This document shows, in pieces, positions 6,173-52,305 of a stretch of 64,000 nt of DNA. This DNA comes from Acidimicrobiia bacterium. GTDB lineage: Bacteria; Actinomycetota; Acidimicrobiia; Spongiisociales; UBA11373. A program made the position numbers and the translations under genes. The notes under the pieces were generated by a model, which was given only the letters and a program-made list of their open reading frames with translations, did no database searches and was not told the origin of the DNA. Location: NCBI GenBank assembly GCA_029263095.1, contig JAJCYA010000043.1, forward strand, positions 2,470 through 66,469, read 5' to 3'. The number at the start of each line of letters is the position of its first letter. The first letter of the stretch is position 1.

Positions 6173-6820
6173 ATGGATTCGGTCGACATGGCACGACGAG
6201 CAGCCGATTGGGCGGGCTACCCCCTCACCGAAGGAGCCGCAGAGGTATTGGAGATATACGCCCTGTGGTTGGAGGCCGAAGCCATCCCTGCCGGCGGCCT
6301 GGGACCGAGGGAAGGAGATCGGATCTGGTCTAGGCACGTAGCCGACAGCATCCTGTTTGCCGCTGGTTGGCCCGATGGTGCTCCCAAGGAGGTTCTCGAT
6401 GTGGGAAGCGGAGTGGGGCTCCCCGGAATCCCGCTGGGAGTCTTGTGGCCAGACGCAGAGATCACGCTCCTCGATCGCGGCGGACGCCGGATACGCCTAC
6501 TGCAACGGATTGTCCGGGTACTGGGGCTCAGCAACGTCCATGTCTTCCAAGGAGACGCCTTCGATGTAGCAGACGAGTGGTCCGGGGTGGTCTATAGGGG
6601 TTCGGTAAAGCCTCCGGAATCGGTCGGTTTGAGTGCTCGCTTGCTAGATACCCCCGGAACAGCGGTCCTTGGCCTCAGTAGGAAGTCGCAGCCTCCCGAC
6701 CGAACTCGTGACCTCGTTTCGGTCGCCCAAGCGATGGGTCTCGACACCGAAATAGTGGGGGTCCCATCGACAATCCTTGACGCACCCGCCTGGTTACTTA
6801 TCATGCGCGCTGGTGAGTAA
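6173..6820 (+). CDS. rsmG: 16S rRNA (guanine527-N7)-methyltransferase RsmG (GidB)
   Basis: SAM-binding motif LDVGSGVGLPGIPLG. Track ORF begins at 6110. The ATG at 6173 (MDSVDMARRA...) gives a typical length and sits 8 bp after a CATAAT -10-like hexamer, consistent with a leaderless mRNA. Confidence 0.85.
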   Translation: MDSVDMARRAADWAGYPLTEGAAEVLEIYALWLEAEAIPAGGLGPREGDRIWSRHVADSILFAAGWPDGAPKEVLDVGSGVGLPGIPLGVLWPDAEITLLDRGGRRIRLLQRIVRVLGLSNVHVFQGDAFDVADEWSGVVYRGSVKPPESVGLSARLLDTPGTAVLGLSRKSQPPDRTRDLVSVAQAMGLDTEIVGVPSTILDAPAWLLIMRAGE

Positions 6821-11192: not shown

Positions 11193-12119
11193 TCATGGAA
11201 TCACGATCAGATCTGCGCAGTCTGGAACACCCCAGACCTGGAATGGACCGACCTCGCCCCCGGTCAACTCGAAGTACACAACTACGGTGAGCTCGCCGTT
11301 CTCGTACTCGAAGAAGAAGCGCTGTGGTGGGGGATCGGAGCGGATCTCGGTGTCCTCGATCCAACAAGAGGTCTCTTCGATCGCATCCGCGGCCCTCGCA
11401 TTCACGGCTGCGGCGTCGCTCCTGATCACAGAAAGTTCGGCAGACAGTTGCGCAACCTGCTCCTCGCCTGTTGCCGAGGCAATCGATGTTGTGGTCGAGT
11501 CCTCCGCAGCTGCCTGCGTTGTCGTGGGGGCCGCCGCCGGTGCGGTCGTTGTGGTGGGACGTAGTGTCGTAGAGGAACCAAAGGCAGCTGCTTGGTCGGA
11601 ACCATCTCCACCTGGGATGAGGGCGTCGTCCGCATCCGCGCCGGCGACTGCCATGGATTCGACTTCAGGAGCCTCATCAGCTGTTGCGGCCCGTTGCTCG
11701 ACGGCCGCGGCGGCTGCAGTGGTCGTCGCTTCGGCCGGCAGTTCGATGGCCGCTGTGGCGTTGTCTCCATCGGTAGACAGGAGGCCGACGACCGGGACAA
11801 TGGCAACTAGACCCAGCAAGGCTGCGGCGGCAATACCGAGAGAGCCCCACGGGACACGGCGAACGGGCTGGGCTGTGCCCGGCTCAGGAGCCGCGACTCC
11901 GAGCGCGTCAGCCACCGCGGCTCGAAGTGTGGAACGTTCCTCAACCGAAAGCTCTGGCCGGGGAGCCCCCGACAATGCATCGAGAGCGATTCGATGTGCG
12001 GCGAGTTCAGCGGCAGCGATTGGGTCTGCTGCGATTTCGCGTTCGAGCGCTGCGGCTTCATCGGGATCGAGTCGTCCCTCGGCCAGCGCTGCGATTGCGT
12101 CACGGTCGTGTCTAGGCAT
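11193..12119 (-). CDS. anti-sigma factor (cytoplasmic N-domain, one TM, Ala/Thr-rich extracytoplasmic region); RsmA-like by position
   Basis: ATG at 12119 (MPRHDRDAIAALAEGRLDPDEAAALEREIA...) overlaps the sigma-gene stop by 8 nt (ATGCCTAG). Single TM LGIAAAALLGLVAIVPVVGLL. Same position as the anti-SigM gene of M. tuberculosis. Confidence 0.65.
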   Translation of the reverse strand: MPRHDRDAIAALAEGRLDPDEAAALEREIAADPIAAAELAAHRIALDALSGAPRPELSVEERSTLRAAVADALGVAAPEPGTAQPVRRVPWGSLGIAAAALLGLVAIVPVVGLLSTDGDNATAAIELPAEATTTAAAAAVEQRAATADEAPEVESMAVAGADADDALIPGGDGSDQAAAFGSSTTLRPTTTTAPAAAPTTTQAAAEDSTTTSIASATGEEQVAQLSAELSVIRSDAAAVNARAADAIEETSCWIEDTEIRSDPPPQRFFFEYENGELTVVVYFELTGGEVGPFQVWGVPDCADLIVIP

Positions 12120-12693
12120 TTGTCTCTTCACTCTGACTCTTGTGGTCACCTCTCAGGTTCCCGAGACTGTCGGCCAGGAGACGTCTCCCCCTGAACACCC
12201 TGGACTTGACGGTGCCGATCGGGACCCCGAGAGCGTCCGAAACCGTTTCCAGTGACAGGCCCTCGAGGTCGGACAAGATCACCGCCGCTTTGAACTCCGC
12301 CGGCAGAGAATCGAGTGCTTCCTCAATCTCTGGTCGGACCTCTGCGGACTCGAATTCGTCGCCGGCAGTGGGATCAGTCGGATCGATTCCCTCCGGCAGC
12401 GGATCTGTCTTCCTGCGCTGCGTACGGCGAGCAACGTCATAGCAAGTGTTCACCGCAACTCGGTACAGCCAAGTACTAAACGCCGACCTTCCGGCGAACC
12501 GATCGGCCTTGCGGAATACGGCGATGAATGTCTCCTGCGTCGCGTCGAGCGCGGCCTCGCGGTCACGCAACATCCTGAGACAGATTGAGAACACTCGATC
12601 CTCGTGGGCTCGCATGAGGGAGTCGAATGCATCGACATCGCCGGCAAGGTACTGCTCGATGAGGGCCGCATCGTCGGCGGCACGGTCGGTCAC
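12112..12693 (-). CDS. ECF RNA polymerase sigma factor (SigM-like by synteny)
   Basis: Sigma-70 region 2 (LIEQYLAGDVDAFDSLMRAHEDRVFSICLRML...FSTWLYRVAVNT) and region 4 (LSDLEGLSLETVSDALGVPIGTVKSRVFRGRRLL). The track ORF starts at a TTG at 12900. GTG at 12693 (VTDRAADDAAL...) gives a canonical ~190-aa ECF sigma. Confidence 0.8.
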   Translation of the reverse strand: MTDRAADDAALIEQYLAGDVDAFDSLMRAHEDRVFSICLRMLRDREAALDATQETFIAVFRKADRFAGRSAFSTWLYRVAVNTCYDVARRTQRRKTDPLPEGIDPTDPTAGDEFESAEVRPEIEEALDSLPAEFKAAVILSDLEGLSLETVSDALGVPIGTVKSRVFRGRRLLADSLGNLRGDHKSQSEETNA

Positions 12694-12736
12694 CGAAGGG
12701 ACGGTACCGGCTTGGAGAGGGGTCGGCGAGGTCGTT

Positions 12737-12858
12737 GGCCTCGCTGTCTCTCGGCTGCGATTGGTAAGAGGGCCGTCGGCTGCGTCGTCTCCTGCGATGG
12801 CCTCGCTGTCGCTCGGCTGCAAGGGTCGTCGGCTGTCGCCGTCTCCCGCAATTCGCAA
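12737..12858. repeat. imperfect ~60-bp tandem duplication upstream of the ECF sigma gene
   Basis: Unit 1 (12737-12798): ggcctcgctgtctctcggctgcgattggtaagagggccgtcggctgcgtcgtctcctgcgat. Unit 2 (12799-~12858): ggcctcgctgtcgctcggctgcaagggtcgtcggctgtcgccgtctcccgcaat. About 85% identical. A 62-bp unit is not a multiple of three, so it is unlikely to be coding. Confidence 0.6.
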
Positions 12859-12889
12859 GATGCACAGCAGTACGCGTTGAGGTCTCCTG

Positions 12890-12917
12890 CCAATTGCCAA
12901 TTGCCAATTGCTAATTG
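12890..12917. repeat. tandem heptamer array (CCAATTG)x3 + CTAATTG between the degV stop and the ECF sigma gene
   Basis: Read directly: ccaattgccaattgccaattgctaattg. Each unit carries the palindromic core CAATTG. The last unit overlaps the degV stop codon. Confidence 0.8.
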
Positions 12918-13744
12918 CCTTCTCTGTACACCACTCCGATTACACCGGGGCCGGCGTGCGTGCCGACCACCGGTCCAAGTCTGGCGACGATTGGATCGCT
13001 GTGACCCCGTTCGTTGAGCGCCTCGAGGAATTCGTCGAGATCGGGAGCATCGCTGTGGACCACTCCAACTTCAGTGAGAGATTCGAGGGAGTCGAGATGA
13101 TCGAGCACGGCTCTGATCGCTTTGCGTCGTGTCCTCACCCGGCCGCCGGCGCTCACGATCCCGTCTGCGAATGTAATGAGGGGCTTTACGTCGAGAAGGT
13201 TGCCGAAGAAGGCTGCAGCCCCTCCGATTCGACCGCCGCGCTTGAGGAATTCGAGAGTGTCGAGAGAGGCGAACAGATTGGATGAGTCGACGGCTCGGCG
13301 CGCTGCTTCCTCTACCTCATCGATCGTGCCTCCCGCCTGGGCAGCCCTGGCAGCTGCCAGGACGCAGAGCCCGAGTGCCGCCGAGACGAGGCCACTATCG
13401 ATCACCCGGACTGGGATTCCCGATGTCAGTTGCTCCGCGGCCAGCGTGGCGGACTGGTGTGTTGCGCTGATACCGGCTGAGATCATGACTGCCACGATGC
13501 CGTCGGCTCCCGCATTGGACAGGTCGCGGTAGGCCCTCTGGAAGCGTCCGACCGACGGGGCTGCCGTCTCGGGGAGTTCCTCCGAAGTGGTGAGGCGGGC
13601 CCAGAAATCGTCGACGGACAACTCTTGCCTGTCGACGAAATCGTCGTCACCGAAACGGATGGTCAGAGGCACAACGGTGATGCGGTGACTCTCGAGGATC
13701 TCGTCGGGCAGATCACACGATGAATCGGTGACGATGCGGATCAT
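12911..13744 (-). CDS. DegV-family fatty-acid-binding protein
   Basis: 277 aa. MIRIVTDSSCDLPDEIL..., the internal GISATHQSA, and ...FLKRGGRIGGAAAF are typical DegV/DUF194 features. Confidence 0.85.
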   Translation of the reverse strand: MIRIVTDSSCDLPDEILESHRITVVPLTIRFGDDDFVDRQELSVDDFWARLTTSEELPETAAPSVGRFQRAYRDLSNAGADGIVAVMISAGISATHQSATLAAEQLTSGIPVRVIDSGLVSAALGLCVLAAARAAQAGGTIDEVEEAARRAVDSSNLFASLDTLEFLKRGGRIGGAAAFFGNLLDVKPLITFADGIVSAGGRVRTRRKAIRAVLDHLDSLESLTEVGVVHSDAPDLDEFLEALNERGHSDPIVARLGPVVGTHAGPGVIGVVYREGN

Positions 13745-27213: not shown

Positions 27214-28871
27214 TGCGGCGGTTGGCACTGATCGCTGTGGTGCTGAGTCTGGTGATCGCGGCATGTGGTGACGACGACGCGGTGTCGATCTTCACCTCGA
27301 CTTCGAACGGGTCCAGCTCTTTCGCGACGACGGGCGATATTGAGCCCTATCCCGCTCCCGTTGTTGAAGAGTACGTGACTGGATGCGCCGGAGAAGCCGA
27401 CGAGGGTCTGTGTCGCTGCACTATCGCCGAGTTCCAGCAGCGACTTACCTTGATCGAGTTCCTCGAATTGGTCGATACCGATCTCGATACCAGCCCCGTA
27501 GTGCAGGACGTGATACAGCTTTGCCTCACAGATGGATTCAGCGATTCGACGACCACCACGGTCGTCGCCGCCTCGACCACCACCATGGTCGTCGCTGCCT
27601 CGACCACAACGACCGCTCCCGAGTTTGAAGCGATCACCGACATCGAGACGATCACCCGCCTGACGATTGACGACCTGGAACAGTGGTGGTCGGCCGAGCT
27701 GCCGACGGTGTTTGGCACTGAGTACGAATCGGTGAGCGAATTCGGCCCCTACTTCATCTCGCAGGGTGATATTCCATTCTGCGGCGGTCCGCTCAAGCGA
27801 GACCAGTTCGAGGGCAACGCGTTCTACTGCTGGATCGACGACACGGTGCAGTGGGACGCCGAGGGCCTCATGGCGCCACTGTTTCAGGAATTTGGCGATT
27901 TTACCGTCGCTCTCGTACTCGCCCACGAGTGGGGGCATGCCGTCCAGGCCAGGTTCGGTTTTGACGACGTCAACCAGCCGACGATCGTGAGTGAACTCCA
28001 GGCGGACTGCTTGGCCGGCTCATGGACCGGCCGGATCGCTCGCGAGGAGAGTGACCTTCTACGCCTGGAGACCGGCGATCTTGAGGAGGCGATGGCCGGC
28101 TTCCTGCTGATAGGTGACGAGATCGGTACCGCCCCCGGAGGGGCCAACGCCCACGGTGGTTCATTCGATCGTCTCAACGCGTTCTTCGAGGGTTTCAACG
28201 AGGGCACCCCCGAGTGTGCAACTTATGAGGATTCGCCTCCGGACATCGTGTTCATCCCAGTCCTGATCAGCGAGGACCCGAACGAGAACCTCCTCGATCT
28301 TCCGCTCGCCACTGTGGCGCCGCAGCTTGTTGAGGCTCTCGAGGTGTTTTGGGCGATCGTCTATCCCGAGGTCTTCAGCTCCCCTTGGATTCCCGTGTCC
28401 GACACGATTCCGTATAGGCCGTCGGCGGGAGCGTTTCCGTCGTGTGGAGGATCCACCTTCGACCAGGCGTTCTATGAGGGCAATGCCTTCTACTGCTCGG
28501 CCGACGACTACGTGGCTTGGGATGACGAGGGGCTGTTCCCCGATCTCTACGGCGAGATCGGTGACTTTGCCATCGGGTTGGTGCTCGCCAACGAGTGGGG
28601 TCGGGCCGTCCAAAACCGAGCAGGGCTCCCGATCGAAACCGTGGCCGCCCAGCTCCAGGTGGACTGCCTCACAGGGGTGTGGACTGCCGCGCTCATCCCA
28701 GACGACAACCCCACAGCCATCCGCTTGTCGGCGGGTGATCTGGAGGAGGGAATCGCCGGCTTCCTGACCCTGCCGGCGAATCCGGGCGAGGGTGGCTACG
28801 TGTCGGCGTTCGACCGCTTTGAATCGTTCAAGGAAGGCTTCTTCCTCGGCACAGACGCGTGTGAACTCTGA
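27195..28871 (+). CDS. lipoprotein with two tandem YpfJ-like putative neutral Zn-metallopeptidase domains (first HEWGH intact, second NEWGR degenerate)
   Basis: Signal peptide plus lipobox (LVIAAC). Domain 1: AFYCWIDDTV...GDFTVALVLAHEWGHAVQ...ELQADCLAGSW...GDLEEA...IGDE...HG-S-DR. Domain 2 is the same pattern but reads LANEWGRAVQ. Thr-rich linker between the lipobox and domain 1. Confidence 0.75.
   Translation: MARVALMRRLALIAVVLSLVIAACGDDDAVSIFTSTSNGSSSFATTGDIEPYPAPVVEEYVTGCAGEADEGLCRCTIAEFQQRLTLIEFLELVDTDLDTSPVVQDVIQLCLTDGFSDSTTTTVVAASTTTMVVAASTTTTAPEFEAITDIETITRLTIDDLEQWWSAELPTVFGTEYESVSEFGPYFISQGDIPFCGGPLKRDQFEGNAFYCWIDDTVQWDAEGLMAPLFQEFGDFTVALVLAHEWGHAVQARFGFDDVNQPTIVSELQADCLAGSWTGRIAREESDLLRLETGDLEEAMAGFLLIGDEIGTAPGGANAHGGSFDRLNAFFEGFNEGTPECATYEDSPPDIVFIPVLISEDPNENLLDLPLATVAPQLVEALEVFWAIVYPEVFSSPWIPVSDTIPYRPSAGAFPSCGGSTFDQAFYEGNAFYCSADDYVAWDDEGLFPDLYGEIGDFAIGLVLANEWGRAVQNRAGLPIETVAAQLQVDCLTGVWTAALIPDDNPTAIRLSAGDLEEGIAGFLTLPANPGEGGYVSAFDRFESFKEGFFLGTDACEL
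27561..27614 (+). repeat. 27-bp in-frame tandem duplication inside the lipoprotein linker (VVAASTTT x2)
   Basis: gtcgtcgccgcctcgaccaccaccatg / gtcgtcgctgcctcgaccacaacgacc. Confidence 0.7.
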
Positions 28872-51379: not shown

Positions 51380-52305
51380 CCGAAACACTCTCCGATCTCG
51401 ATGGCCGTGACGTTGACCGCCACCGACGACTCGTTGCCCGAGGTGTCACGGGCCGTCATGGTCACCGTGAAGGTGTGATCGAACGGCGCCACCGAAACCG
51501 CTTCCCAAGTATCTGCCGGGTAGGGGCCCACCGTGGCCGTGTAGGTGTTGCCGCCGGCAGCCATTCCCACGTTGTGGGTTCCGAGGGCGTCGGTCCAACT
51601 GGCGGTGACGCTGGCGATGCCACCGTCGTCTGTGACGACGGCCAAGACGGTCGACTGGCGCGGCTCGGGCGGCGAGCAAGTGATGTTGAAGGCTCCACCG
51701 TCCAACTCCCAGATCGTCCCCGGACTGGCCTGCTGTTGCCCGATCGAGGGCGGGGTGGTGTCGGCGGCGACCGTGGTATTGGTGGGTGGCGGAGCCTGGG
51801 TGGTGGCTGTGGTCTCGGTCGTGGTCGGTGCTTCAGTGGTCACCGTTGTCTCGGGCGCTTCGGTGGTAGCGGTCGTCTCGGGTGTCGCGGTGGTGACGGT
51901 TGTCACTGCGGCGGCGACGGCTTCGACCGGAACGTTGCAGGCGAAGACCGGCAGATCGGTGGTGTCGCCGTCGGGGAGCACCTGGTGCGCTCGCATCCAC
52001 ACCCGAGTATTGGGAGCGTTCGGCGATCGGATCTCGGCCCAATCCCCCGATGCATCGCGCCCGGTGATGAAAACGCGATCACCCCGGGTAACCGTTCCTA
52101 GAGCGTCCCCGTCGGGGCAGTCGAAATAGGAGGCGACCGCCGCGTCGGCGAGAACGGCGGGCTCACCGACCAGGCTCGCCGCCCCGGTGAGACCGAGAAG
52201 TGCGCCGACGATCAGTCCGGCGATGACGGAGCCTCCCAGCAGGGTGGCGATGAGGTTCGCCGCGGCACCGCGTTCACTCACTTGTTCCCTCTCATGTCGA
52301 TTCAC
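51376..52305 (-). CDS. membrane-anchored protein with a bacterial SH3-like domain, Thr-rich linker and a C-terminal Ig-like region
   Basis: Cytoplasmic N-terminus, TM LIATLLGGSVIAGLIVGALLGLTG, then ASYFDCPDGDALGTVTRGDRVFITGRDASGDWAEIRSP...VWM resembling SH3b. TTVTTATPETTATTEAPETTVTTEAPTTTETTATT linker. Confidence 0.55.
   Translation of the reverse strand: MNRHEREQVSERGAAANLIATLLGGSVIAGLIVGALLGLTGAASLVGEPAVLADAAVASYFDCPDGDALGTVTRGDRVFITGRDASGDWAEIRSPNAPNTRVWMRAHQVLPDGDTTDLPVFACNVPVEAVAAAVTTVTTATPETTATTEAPETTVTTEAPTTTETTATTQAPPPTNTTVAADTTPPSIGQQQASPGTIWELDGGAFNITCSPPEPRQSTVLAVVTDDGGIASVTASWTDALGTHNVGMAAGGNTYTATVGPYPADTWEAVSVAPFDHTFTVTMTARDTSGNESSVAVNVTAIEIGECFG

Follow-up and report, generated by a model that had tools for sequence, protein, structure and literature searches.

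Background

The question raised by the locus described here is what two conspicuous tandem repeats are doing in front of a sigma factor gene: whether they regulate it, or have merely accumulated there. The locus lies in a 64,000-nucleotide (nt) stretch of DNA, hereafter the window, from an Acidimicrobiia bacterium (GenBank assembly GCA_029263095.1, contig JAJCYA010000043.1, positions 2,470 to 66,469), in which a degV gene is followed, after a spacer of 217 nt (12694-12910), by the gene of a SigM-like extracytoplasmic function (ECF) sigma factor. Both genes lie on the minus strand, so that the promoter region reads from right to left in window coordinates, an orientation on which the initial annotation of this DNA was silent and which the present analysis adds. 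The spacer holds a heptamer array, which begins at the degV stop codon, and an imperfect tandem duplication with units of 54 and 62 nt.

The explanation that we favor, and consider rather probable, is that two ordinary mutational processes inflated the spacer from a few tens of nt to its present 217 nt, and that the repeats serve no dedicated regulatory function. Replication slippage would have made, and would still maintain, the heptamer array, as one case of the abundant, fast-turnover intergenic 7-nt arrays of this clade, while a local tandem duplication would have copied a GC-rich box that is normally single and located just upstream of the sigma promoter. Expression of sigma would depend on a minimal, conserved, leaderless promoter, with all of the needed sequence contained within ~30 nt, and any effect of the repeats would be generic, e.g. 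spacing degV from the promoter or forming a weak hairpin.

Results

Anatomy of the two repeats

The heptamer array reads GGCAATT AGCAATT GGCAATT GGCAATT GGCAGGA on the minus strand (12885-12919), with its first two units at 12919-12913 and 12912-12906, and was delineated by pattern search and by Tandem Repeats Finder, which reported a period of 7, 4.6 copies and 92% matches over 12888-12919. The period described by the initial annotation is thereby confirmed, and so is its overlap with the degV stop: the TAG (12913-12911) falls across the boundary between units 1 and 2, with unit 2 supplying the stop, and the array covers the final two degV codons and the stop before it extends into the spacer. 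It has the three or more head-to-tail 7-nt copies (>=3) that characterize heptanucleotide simple sequence repeats (SSRs), has a GC content of 46% vs 62% for the window, and is located 192-226 nt upstream of the sigma start codon. The motif CAATTGSCAATTG, with at most one mismatch, occurs three times in the window, each time in the array, against an expectation of 0.02, and none of 100 shuffles reached three matches; within the window, pairs of the GCAATNNGCAAT type are essentially confined to the degV-sigma spacer. The initial annotation had suggested searching the genome for further (CCAATTG)n arrays; across the 64-kb window none besides this one was returned.

Two degenerate heptads that share this core but point the other way (GCAATTC GCAAGAT on the plus strand) are found at 12848-12861, matching over 12848-12859. 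This inverted partner is weak (13/21 in a 3-unit test), and together with the array it is predicted to form a hairpin (102-nt fold, -33.8 kcal/mol, z = -2.18); the array alone gives a weak self-hairpin of -7.1 kcal/mol as DNA.

To place these repeats in context we use genome and metagenome scans that recovered 160 loci with relatives of the sigma factor, all of them in Acidimicrobiia-type metagenome-assembled genomes (MAGs), which are referred to by L numbers below. The tandem duplication, as resolved by repeat search and gapped local alignment, consists on the minus strand of copy 1, with 54 nt (GGGAGACGGCGACAGCCGACGACCCTTGCAGCCGAGCGACAGCGAGGCCATCGC; 12794-12847), and copy 2, with 62 nt (12732-12793), which carries an insertion of 8-9 nt (CTTACCAA...). 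A partial third copy (ACCTCGCCGACCCCTCTCCA; ~12712-12731), recognized by comparison with L081, L083 and L084, is the GCCGACCC box at its ancestral position, 13 nt upstream of the -10 element, and the duplication totals about 2.3 copies. Copies 1 and 2 are identical at 47 of 51 aligned bases, with 10 additional gap columns (92% identity ungapped, 77% counting gaps), and their alignment scores 60, compared with 14.9 ± 3.0 and a maximum of 32 over 2000 shuffles, so the imperfect ~60-bp duplication of the initial annotation stands. The repeat search detected it as 26 nt at 92% with a spacing of 62, and as blocks of 14-16 nt with a spacing of 53-54. Counting the third copy, it ends ~19 nt upstream of the sigma start; two full copies end ~39 nt upstream.

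What was copied can be recognized in the relatives. The duplicated unit holds a GGGAG-GGCG-CAGCCGCCGACCC box that is present once, just upstream of the -10 element, in L081, L083, L084 and L085, and the first half of copy 1 is homologous to this single-copy box in L081, L083 and L085. The other half of the unit (GCCGAGCGCAGCGAGGCGATCGC) is found in single copy in L082, and the box has no counterpart in L001, L002 and L116. In an alignment of the window's clade (A1) the duplication appears as a block of ~95 nt that is present in the window alone. Searches with the 62-nt unit by blastn-short found only the local copies in the window and none in 80 genome loci, and a blastn search of plasmids gave no match; identity with a dispersed repeat or mobile element was ruled out as a candidate, only the local pair having been found.

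Two Logan contigs from run SRR15505517, which was reached through a trxB look-up, show no difference from the window across the array or either duplication copy, and the repeats are therefore not assembly artefacts. The end of one of these contigs (L161) and the start of the other (L162) overlap by exactly 30 nt (12852-12823), within copy 1, and are left unjoined; this split may reflect a branch of the assembly graph due to strain heterogeneity, or low coverage. As a separate observation, GGAGAC (three times) and GAGAGAC recur through the spacer at intervals of 41-54 nt (12887-12882, 12846-12841, 12792-12787 and 12750-12745, minus strand), and among the heptamer arrays of related loci, too, GGAGACY is the most frequent unit (L007, L116, L022, L023 and L082).

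A predicted minimal promoter downstream of the repeats

The relatives align with the sigma protein from its first residue (MTDRA...), at a GTG or ATG equivalent to GTG 12693, and in syntenic relatives the degV stop is mostly located 19-88 nt upstream of this start. The predicted -10 hexamer, TACCGT, is of the TANNNT type and spans 12701-12706 (minus strand), i.e. positions -13 to -8, 7 nt before the GTG; it is the sole TANNNT on either strand of 12694-12930. Among 133 distinct upstream sequences of relatives, anchored on the sigma start codon, TANNNT starts at -17 to -12 in 87, with a mode at -13 and often in the form TAsCGT, and occurs just once elsewhere between -60 and -6. The same 133 sequences have no Shine-Dalgarno motif before the start, since positions -12 to -4 are rich in C/T, and no conserved -35 element, with an information content of at most 0.3 bit (<=0.3) at -45 to -25.

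Leaderless genes of Actinobacteria can be recognized by a TANNNT motif ~12 nt ahead of the start codon (PMC3160421), and the arrangement is a recognized signature of leaderless transcription in this phylum (PMC3160421; PMC6448022). The sigma gene shows both parts of this signature, the conserved position of TANNNT and the missing Shine-Dalgarno motif. Because of these two features we infer that the sigM mRNA is leaderless, as is predicted class-wide, and that transcription starts at the GTG. All of the repeats would then lie upstream of the core promoter, since the sole TANNNT is located 7 nt before the GTG.

The initial annotation had framed the repeats as elements added to an autoregulated ECF promoter, and that promoter was not recovered. 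No match to GGAAY-N14-19-CGT is present in 12694-12930, and the 33 matches in the window are at chance level; a scan of 12500-13100 for sigma-70 promoters and intrinsic terminators returned nothing. An autoregulated ECF promoter of the GGAAC-N16-17-CGT kind was rejected on this result and on the lack of a conserved -35 in the 133 relatives. The TACCGT hexamer does contain CGT, and its use by the ECF sigma factor itself is conceivable on that ground.

The spacer in related genomes

Most syntenic relatives have a spacer of 19-88 nt, compared with 217 nt in the window; longer ones are found in L009 (128 nt), L082 (150 nt) and three other loci (up to 119 nt). In L086 and L088, with sigma proteins 82-83% identical, the spacer is 32 nt long, lacks repeats and contains only the -10 element, and these two loci are sister to the array-bearing group; the array is also absent from many further relatives with spacers of 19-69 nt. 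Because many relatives have short, repeat-free spacers, neither repeat is needed for expression of the sigma gene, and both are dispensable.

Within the window's clade, array units and copy numbers differ among all members, e.g. GGTATTA GGTATTA GGCAATG CGCAATA in L002 and GATTAGC AACTGGC AACTG in L084. In most members another array follows after 15-20 nt and approximates the reverse complement of the first one (e.g. CTAATGA CTAACGA ... in L002 and ATCTTGC GAATTGC in the window). L001 and L002 are 89% identical at the nt level, and what separates their arrays is exactly one GGTATTA unit, as slippage would predict. The comparison of copy number across relatives that the initial annotation had called for gave this one-unit difference, and placed the duplication in the window alone.

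Period-7 arrays across related loci

Arrays of this kind are not limited to the degV-sigma spacer. We scanned the related loci together with the window (935 kb), a census limited to loci around this gene cluster, for self-matches at lag p in at least 18 of 21 positions, and recovered 54 arrays at period 7 vs 0, 0, 4, 1, 2, 0, 0 and 0 at periods 4, 5, 6, 8, 9, 10, 11 and 12, respectively. At a laxer threshold the count at period 7 rose to 83, with 3-4 at periods 5, 8, 10 and 11; at periods 6 and 9, triplet repeats in coding sequence inflate the counts. Coding status was assigned by synteny, mapping the conserved genes of the window onto the loci, as a longest-spanning-ORF (open reading frame) test is uninformative in GC-rich DNA and a gene caller based on third-position GC (GC3) missed genes at 62% GC. 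By this measure 45 of 48 arrays fall outside the mapped coding high-scoring segment pairs and only three inside, although coding sequence makes up 61% of the bases. The arrays are spread over at least eight different spacers (including those upstream of the GNAT gene, between GNAT and degV, degV and sigma, anti-sigma and the small membrane protein, trxA and cwlM, and after cwlM), often within tens of nt of a gene end. Their units form 18 single-linkage groups, the largest being GGAGACY/CCAGTCY, with a mean GC content of 57%. A reverse-complement array (at least 17/21) is found within 200 nt of 14 of 49 arrays, vs 1 of 49 in a complement-only control.

Some MAGs have a heptamer array in almost every spacer of the gene cluster, with up to ~10 copies, e.g. 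(GGTCATC)10, (GGGAGTC)9 and (CCAGTAG)8; array-rich sites include L082 120-281, 1053-1207 and 3737-3794, L023 3250-3404, 5068-5132 and 6249-6278, L085 595-694, L065 8326-8403, and L017 2431-2493. Direct and reverse-complement arrays 10-100 nt apart were seen in L082 (122-152/248-279), L049 (704-731/763-800), L085 (595-632/624-694), L022 (6518-6740/6749-6776) and L009 (2927-2959/2972-2999). The L022 array at 6518-6740, (GAGCAAT)n with at least 17 units, is broken by a run of N that the assembly failed to span, and array lengths in MAGs are for that reason probably underestimated. Upstream of sigma in L100 (1-130), a 21-nt super-period (GGCAAGA GGCAAGA GGCAACG) is repeated at least six times and runs off the contig end; three heptads correspond to about two helical turns.

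Discussion

The observations above are best accommodated by slippage plus a local duplication upstream of a leaderless promoter, and several of our own results pull in the other direction. Period-7 arrays starting at the degV stop are present in every one of the eight members of the clade to which the window belongs, and GCAAT heptads with an inverted partner recur in a second clade, which together is more than neutrality alone would obviously predict; approximately 30% of the arrays have inverted partners, which simple slippage does not explain. The 64-kb window holds no second strong period-7 array, so that the arrays are shown to be filler for the clade rather than for this genome. Copy-number change is seen between relatives and not within strains of the window genome; no closer strain turned up in the genome and metagenome scans, the best sigma identity being 85% in both. 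Finally, the leaderless start, the absence of an upstream promoter and the lack of read-through from degV are all predictions from sequence.

Much of this counter-evidence bears on the strongest alternative, in which the GCAAT-core heptads are a cis-element of degV/sigM, either an operator built from tandem half-sites to which a protein would bind cooperatively, or the arms of an RNA or DNA hairpin that insulates or terminates degV, with slippage only tuning the copy number. In a second clade (L008, L015, L091, L094/L095 and L104) degV is divergent and GCAAT-core heptads are nevertheless present upstream of sigma, so GCAAY/RTTGC heptads occupy this place in two clades despite the inversion of degV. 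In five of six divergent-clade genomes the direct GCAATTC/GCAATAC and inverted GCATTGC/GTATTGC units are kept (arms CGCAATACGAC ... CATTGCGYATTGCGCC), while the 30-45 nt between the arms are unalignable, and L013 carries a different pair, GGCAGAC/GTCTGCC, in this position. Short-spacer lineages separate the two GCAAT clades in a neighbor-joining tree of the sigma proteins, so that the arrays would require either two gains or many losses. Pairing of array 1 with array 2 is found in the predicted folds of 7 of 12 spacers, z-scores of -2.2 to -3.7 are reached by four of the 12, and a k-mer test gave a modest, 1.9-fold enrichment of ATTGC over the 250 nt that precede sigma. Heptamer repeats of Nostoc were reported in a preprint to affect recO and recF promoter constructs (bioRxiv 10.1101/2022.06.06.494920).

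Against such a cis-element, the heptads are missing in most relatives, including L086, L088 and all of those with spacers of 19-69 nt, their distance to the -10 element varies from ~60 to 190 nt, and their position relative to degV flips between its 3' and 5' sides. The unit also changes within a clade (ATTAGGT/CTAATGA in L001, L002 and L085), and arrays with other units occupy unrelated spacers. The folding evidence is divided: the mean z-score over the 12 spacers is about -0.9, the whole window spacer is not significant (z = -0.89 sense, -1.57 antisense), and the RNAalifold consensus of the divergent-clade hairpin (-8.35 kcal/mol) has a penalizing, i.e. positive, covariation term with most pairs invariant, heptad position 6 differing between the arms without compensation. 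The window's inverted partner reaches only the 13/21 given above, and Rfam returned no gathering-score match in the window and none at E <= 1 in 12600-13000. Weighing both sides, we regard a cis-element as unlikely, though it is the alternative that survives best. The proposal of the initial annotation that the heptamers point to an additional DNA-binding regulator of the sigma gene is not supported for similar reasons, given an array 192-226 nt upstream, far outside the conserved -10 element at -13, its absence from most relatives and the more than 18 unit types of such arrays.

A broader version of the same idea, which we hold to be improbable, is that the heptad arrays of Acidimicrobiia, in direct and reverse-complement orientation, form a functional intergenic class of hairpins or protein-binding arrays, serving as insulators, terminators or regulators, of which the sigM GCAAT pair would be a conserved example with its arms kept and its loop and units replaced. 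A separate feature of the divergent degV loci (L008, L013, L015, L091, L094 and L104) is that the most conserved block of the spacer, CAGTCTCGCGCGCGTTT, adjoins the degV start codon (alignment A2, columns 18-36, with 11 invariant bases); it may be a leader or promoter element of degV.

The initial annotation also raised a slipped-strand contingency locus, in which gain and loss of heptamers would heritably and reversibly switch sigma expression or the DegV C-terminus and stop. The slippage half of this proposal fits the one-unit difference between L001 and L002 and the period-7 excess, and slippage is the mechanism that we would infer. The contingency half fails on geometry: the array, 192-226 nt from the start codon, lies outside any -35/-10 spacer, leader or ORF that it could tune, and comprises only ~4 units. 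Since the array overlaps the stop, gain or loss of a unit 5' of the TAG would put degV out of frame, yet the stop falls within the second unit and most slippage would occur 3' of it. The unjoined Logan contigs (30-nt overlap, 12852-12823) could be read as population heterogeneity, but the break falls outside the array, and neither contig differs from the window in sequence. This member of the Acidimicrobiia is environmental rather than a host-adapted pathogen, and the neighboring genes are of housekeeping types. We therefore think it very unlikely that the array acts as a switch.

The recent duplication of the promoter raised by the initial annotation holds in part: sequence upstream of the promoter was recently copied, without the -10 element. 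A further suggestion is that the duplication created extra promoters or activator sites and placed sigma under tandem promoters. In its favor, the GGAGAC-N-GCCGAC-N-CCCT box adjoins the -10 element in L081, L083, L084 and L085 and is present in three copies in the window. The -10 hexamer, or any TANNNT, was not duplicated with it, the copies contain no predicted promoter of a sigma-70-like or ECF-like type, and the box is not conserved beyond the close clade (at most 0.3 bit at -45 to -25) and is missing in L001, L002 and L116, which makes this reading a slightly poorer prospect still than a contingency switch. The last alternative, translation of the repeats as an N-terminal extension of the sigma protein from TTG 12900, is scarcely credible: the frame is open from 12900 to the sigma stop (262 aa), but GTG 12693 corresponds to residue 1 of all relatives, which begin at GTG or ATG (MTDRA...), the degV stop 19-88 nt upstream in syntenic relatives leaves no room (some spacers being as short as 19-32 nt), the Pfam domains start past residue 95 of the long ORF, and the 8-nt difference in length between the 54- and 62-nt units is no multiple of 3; on this point the initial annotation, which took the repeats to be untranslated, was right.

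If slippage and local duplication of selectively neutral sequence are the correct explanation, the SigM-like sigma gene appears to be transcribed from a minimal, leaderless promoter that is conserved class-wide, to which the showy repeats would be dispensable upstream additions, and a tempting over-interpretation of the repeats as a switch is removed. The more interesting by-product is the occurrence of clade-wide, often inverted-paired heptad arrays, by which uncultured Acidimicrobiia join cyanobacteria, Xanthomonas, Burkholderia and Beggiatoaceae in accumulating intergenic 7-nt arrays. A clade whose orthologous spacers differ only in their arrays is a natural experiment on the preference for period 7 and on function. 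At a practical level, heptamer arrays break or gap short-read assemblies, as with the Ns in the L022 array.

Genes flanking the spacer and other repeats in the window

The degV gene (12911-13744, minus strand; stop TAG 12913-12911), delimited as an ORF, encodes a DegV/FakB-type fatty-acid-binding protein, matching Pfam DegV at 3.5e-80 and NCBIfam TIGR00762 at 1.5e-81. The sigma gene (12112-12693, minus strand), predicted to be leaderless and starting at GTG 12693 on the basis of its Pfam domains and the start kept in relatives, encodes a 193-aa protein with the ECF sigma domains Sigma70_r2 and r4_2, for which an exact-protein look-up gave no record. Its best NCBIfam model is SigM NF007225, with 172 bits, under the cut-off of 190, and because SigM is the best model and yet remains below that cut-off, SigM-like appears a fair label.

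A probable anti-sigma gene starts at ATG 12119 and overlaps the 3' end of sigma by 8 nt (12119-12112, minus strand), which suggests translational coupling; its match to NCBIfam NF052375 is weak (29.8 bits, cut-off 100). Two further tandem repeats of 27-nt period, at 27546-27607 and 51830-51904 (2.0-2.6 copies, scores 71-103), are probably both in coding sequence, as their period is a multiple of three.

Comparison with known systems

The sigma promoter resembles the leaderless promoters of Actinobacteria in its TACCGT at -13 to -8, in having neither a Shine-Dalgarno motif nor a conserved -35, and in the class-wide conservation of its position (PMC3160421; PMC6448022). The repeats upstream of it can be set against several systems.

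Among DNA-binding proteins that recognize short tandem units, the omega repressor of pSM19035 binds 7-bp WATCACW heptads, in direct and inverted orientation, as a ribbon-helix-helix (RHH) dimer, and MetJ binds 8-bp metboxes. The window shares with these operators contiguous 7-bp units, direct and inverted, upstream of a gene; it differs from them in that its units are not conserved at orthologous loci, the promoter is not overlapped, the distance is variable, and many unrelated units are present within the same genomes. An omega- or RHH-type operator was accordingly rejected on conservation and promoter overlap, with units that differ, a distance of ~60-190 nt and frequent absence; a cognate small RHH gene was not identified, in an analysis that included no search aimed at RHH genes.

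Phase-variable contingency loci likewise have an SSR beside a regulatory gene and unit numbers that differ among relatives. The window array differs in being outside the -35/-10 region, in the lack of a leader, in being in frame only for the last two degV codons, and in its environmental host, and was rejected as a member by geometry (192-226 nt upstream, with the -10 at -13 and no leader predicted).

Tandem repeats of 40-100 bp, of the MIRU/VNTR (mycobacterial interspersed repetitive unit/variable number tandem repeat) type, occupy mycobacterial intergenic regions. The imperfect 54/62-nt copies between co-directional genes of an actinobacterium are of this general form, and differ in that the unit is not dispersed (in the window and 80 genome loci) and contains no small coupling ORF.

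The closest likeness is with the intergenic heptanucleotide SSRs, i.e. the long SSRs of Mrazek, the cyanobacterial short tandemly repeated repetitive (STRR) sequences, the GGGAATC-type repeats of Xanthomonas and Nostoc, and TAACTGA in Beggiatoaceae. Shared are head-to-tail 7-nt units in 2 to ~10 or more copies, a strongly intergenic location, often near gene ends, occasional inverted pairs, an excess of period 7 over other non-triplet periods, and variation between close relatives. The clade studied here has many units, vs one dominant unit in Beggiatoa or Xanthomonas, and the window unit GGCAATT is AT-rich and nearly palindromic, with a single array in the 64 kb of the window. The (CCCCAGT)n of L082 and (GTGGTCA)n of L070 resemble the STRR1 and STRR2 units. 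A further difference is the host, an uncultured member of the Acidimicrobiia, a group not named for this class in PMC4679880 and PMC4692102. Heptanucleotide repeats were described by Mrazek (2007), as summarized in PMC4679880, as the most abundant class of long SSRs in most prokaryotes, with slippage proposed as their origin and three Actinobacteria among the most repeat-rich genomes, and those of Xanthomonas and Nostoc are intergenic, differ among closely related species in both length and sequence, and include some inverted pairs (PMC4692102). The array at the degV stop shows all of the defining features of this class that can be tested, and is a further case of it.

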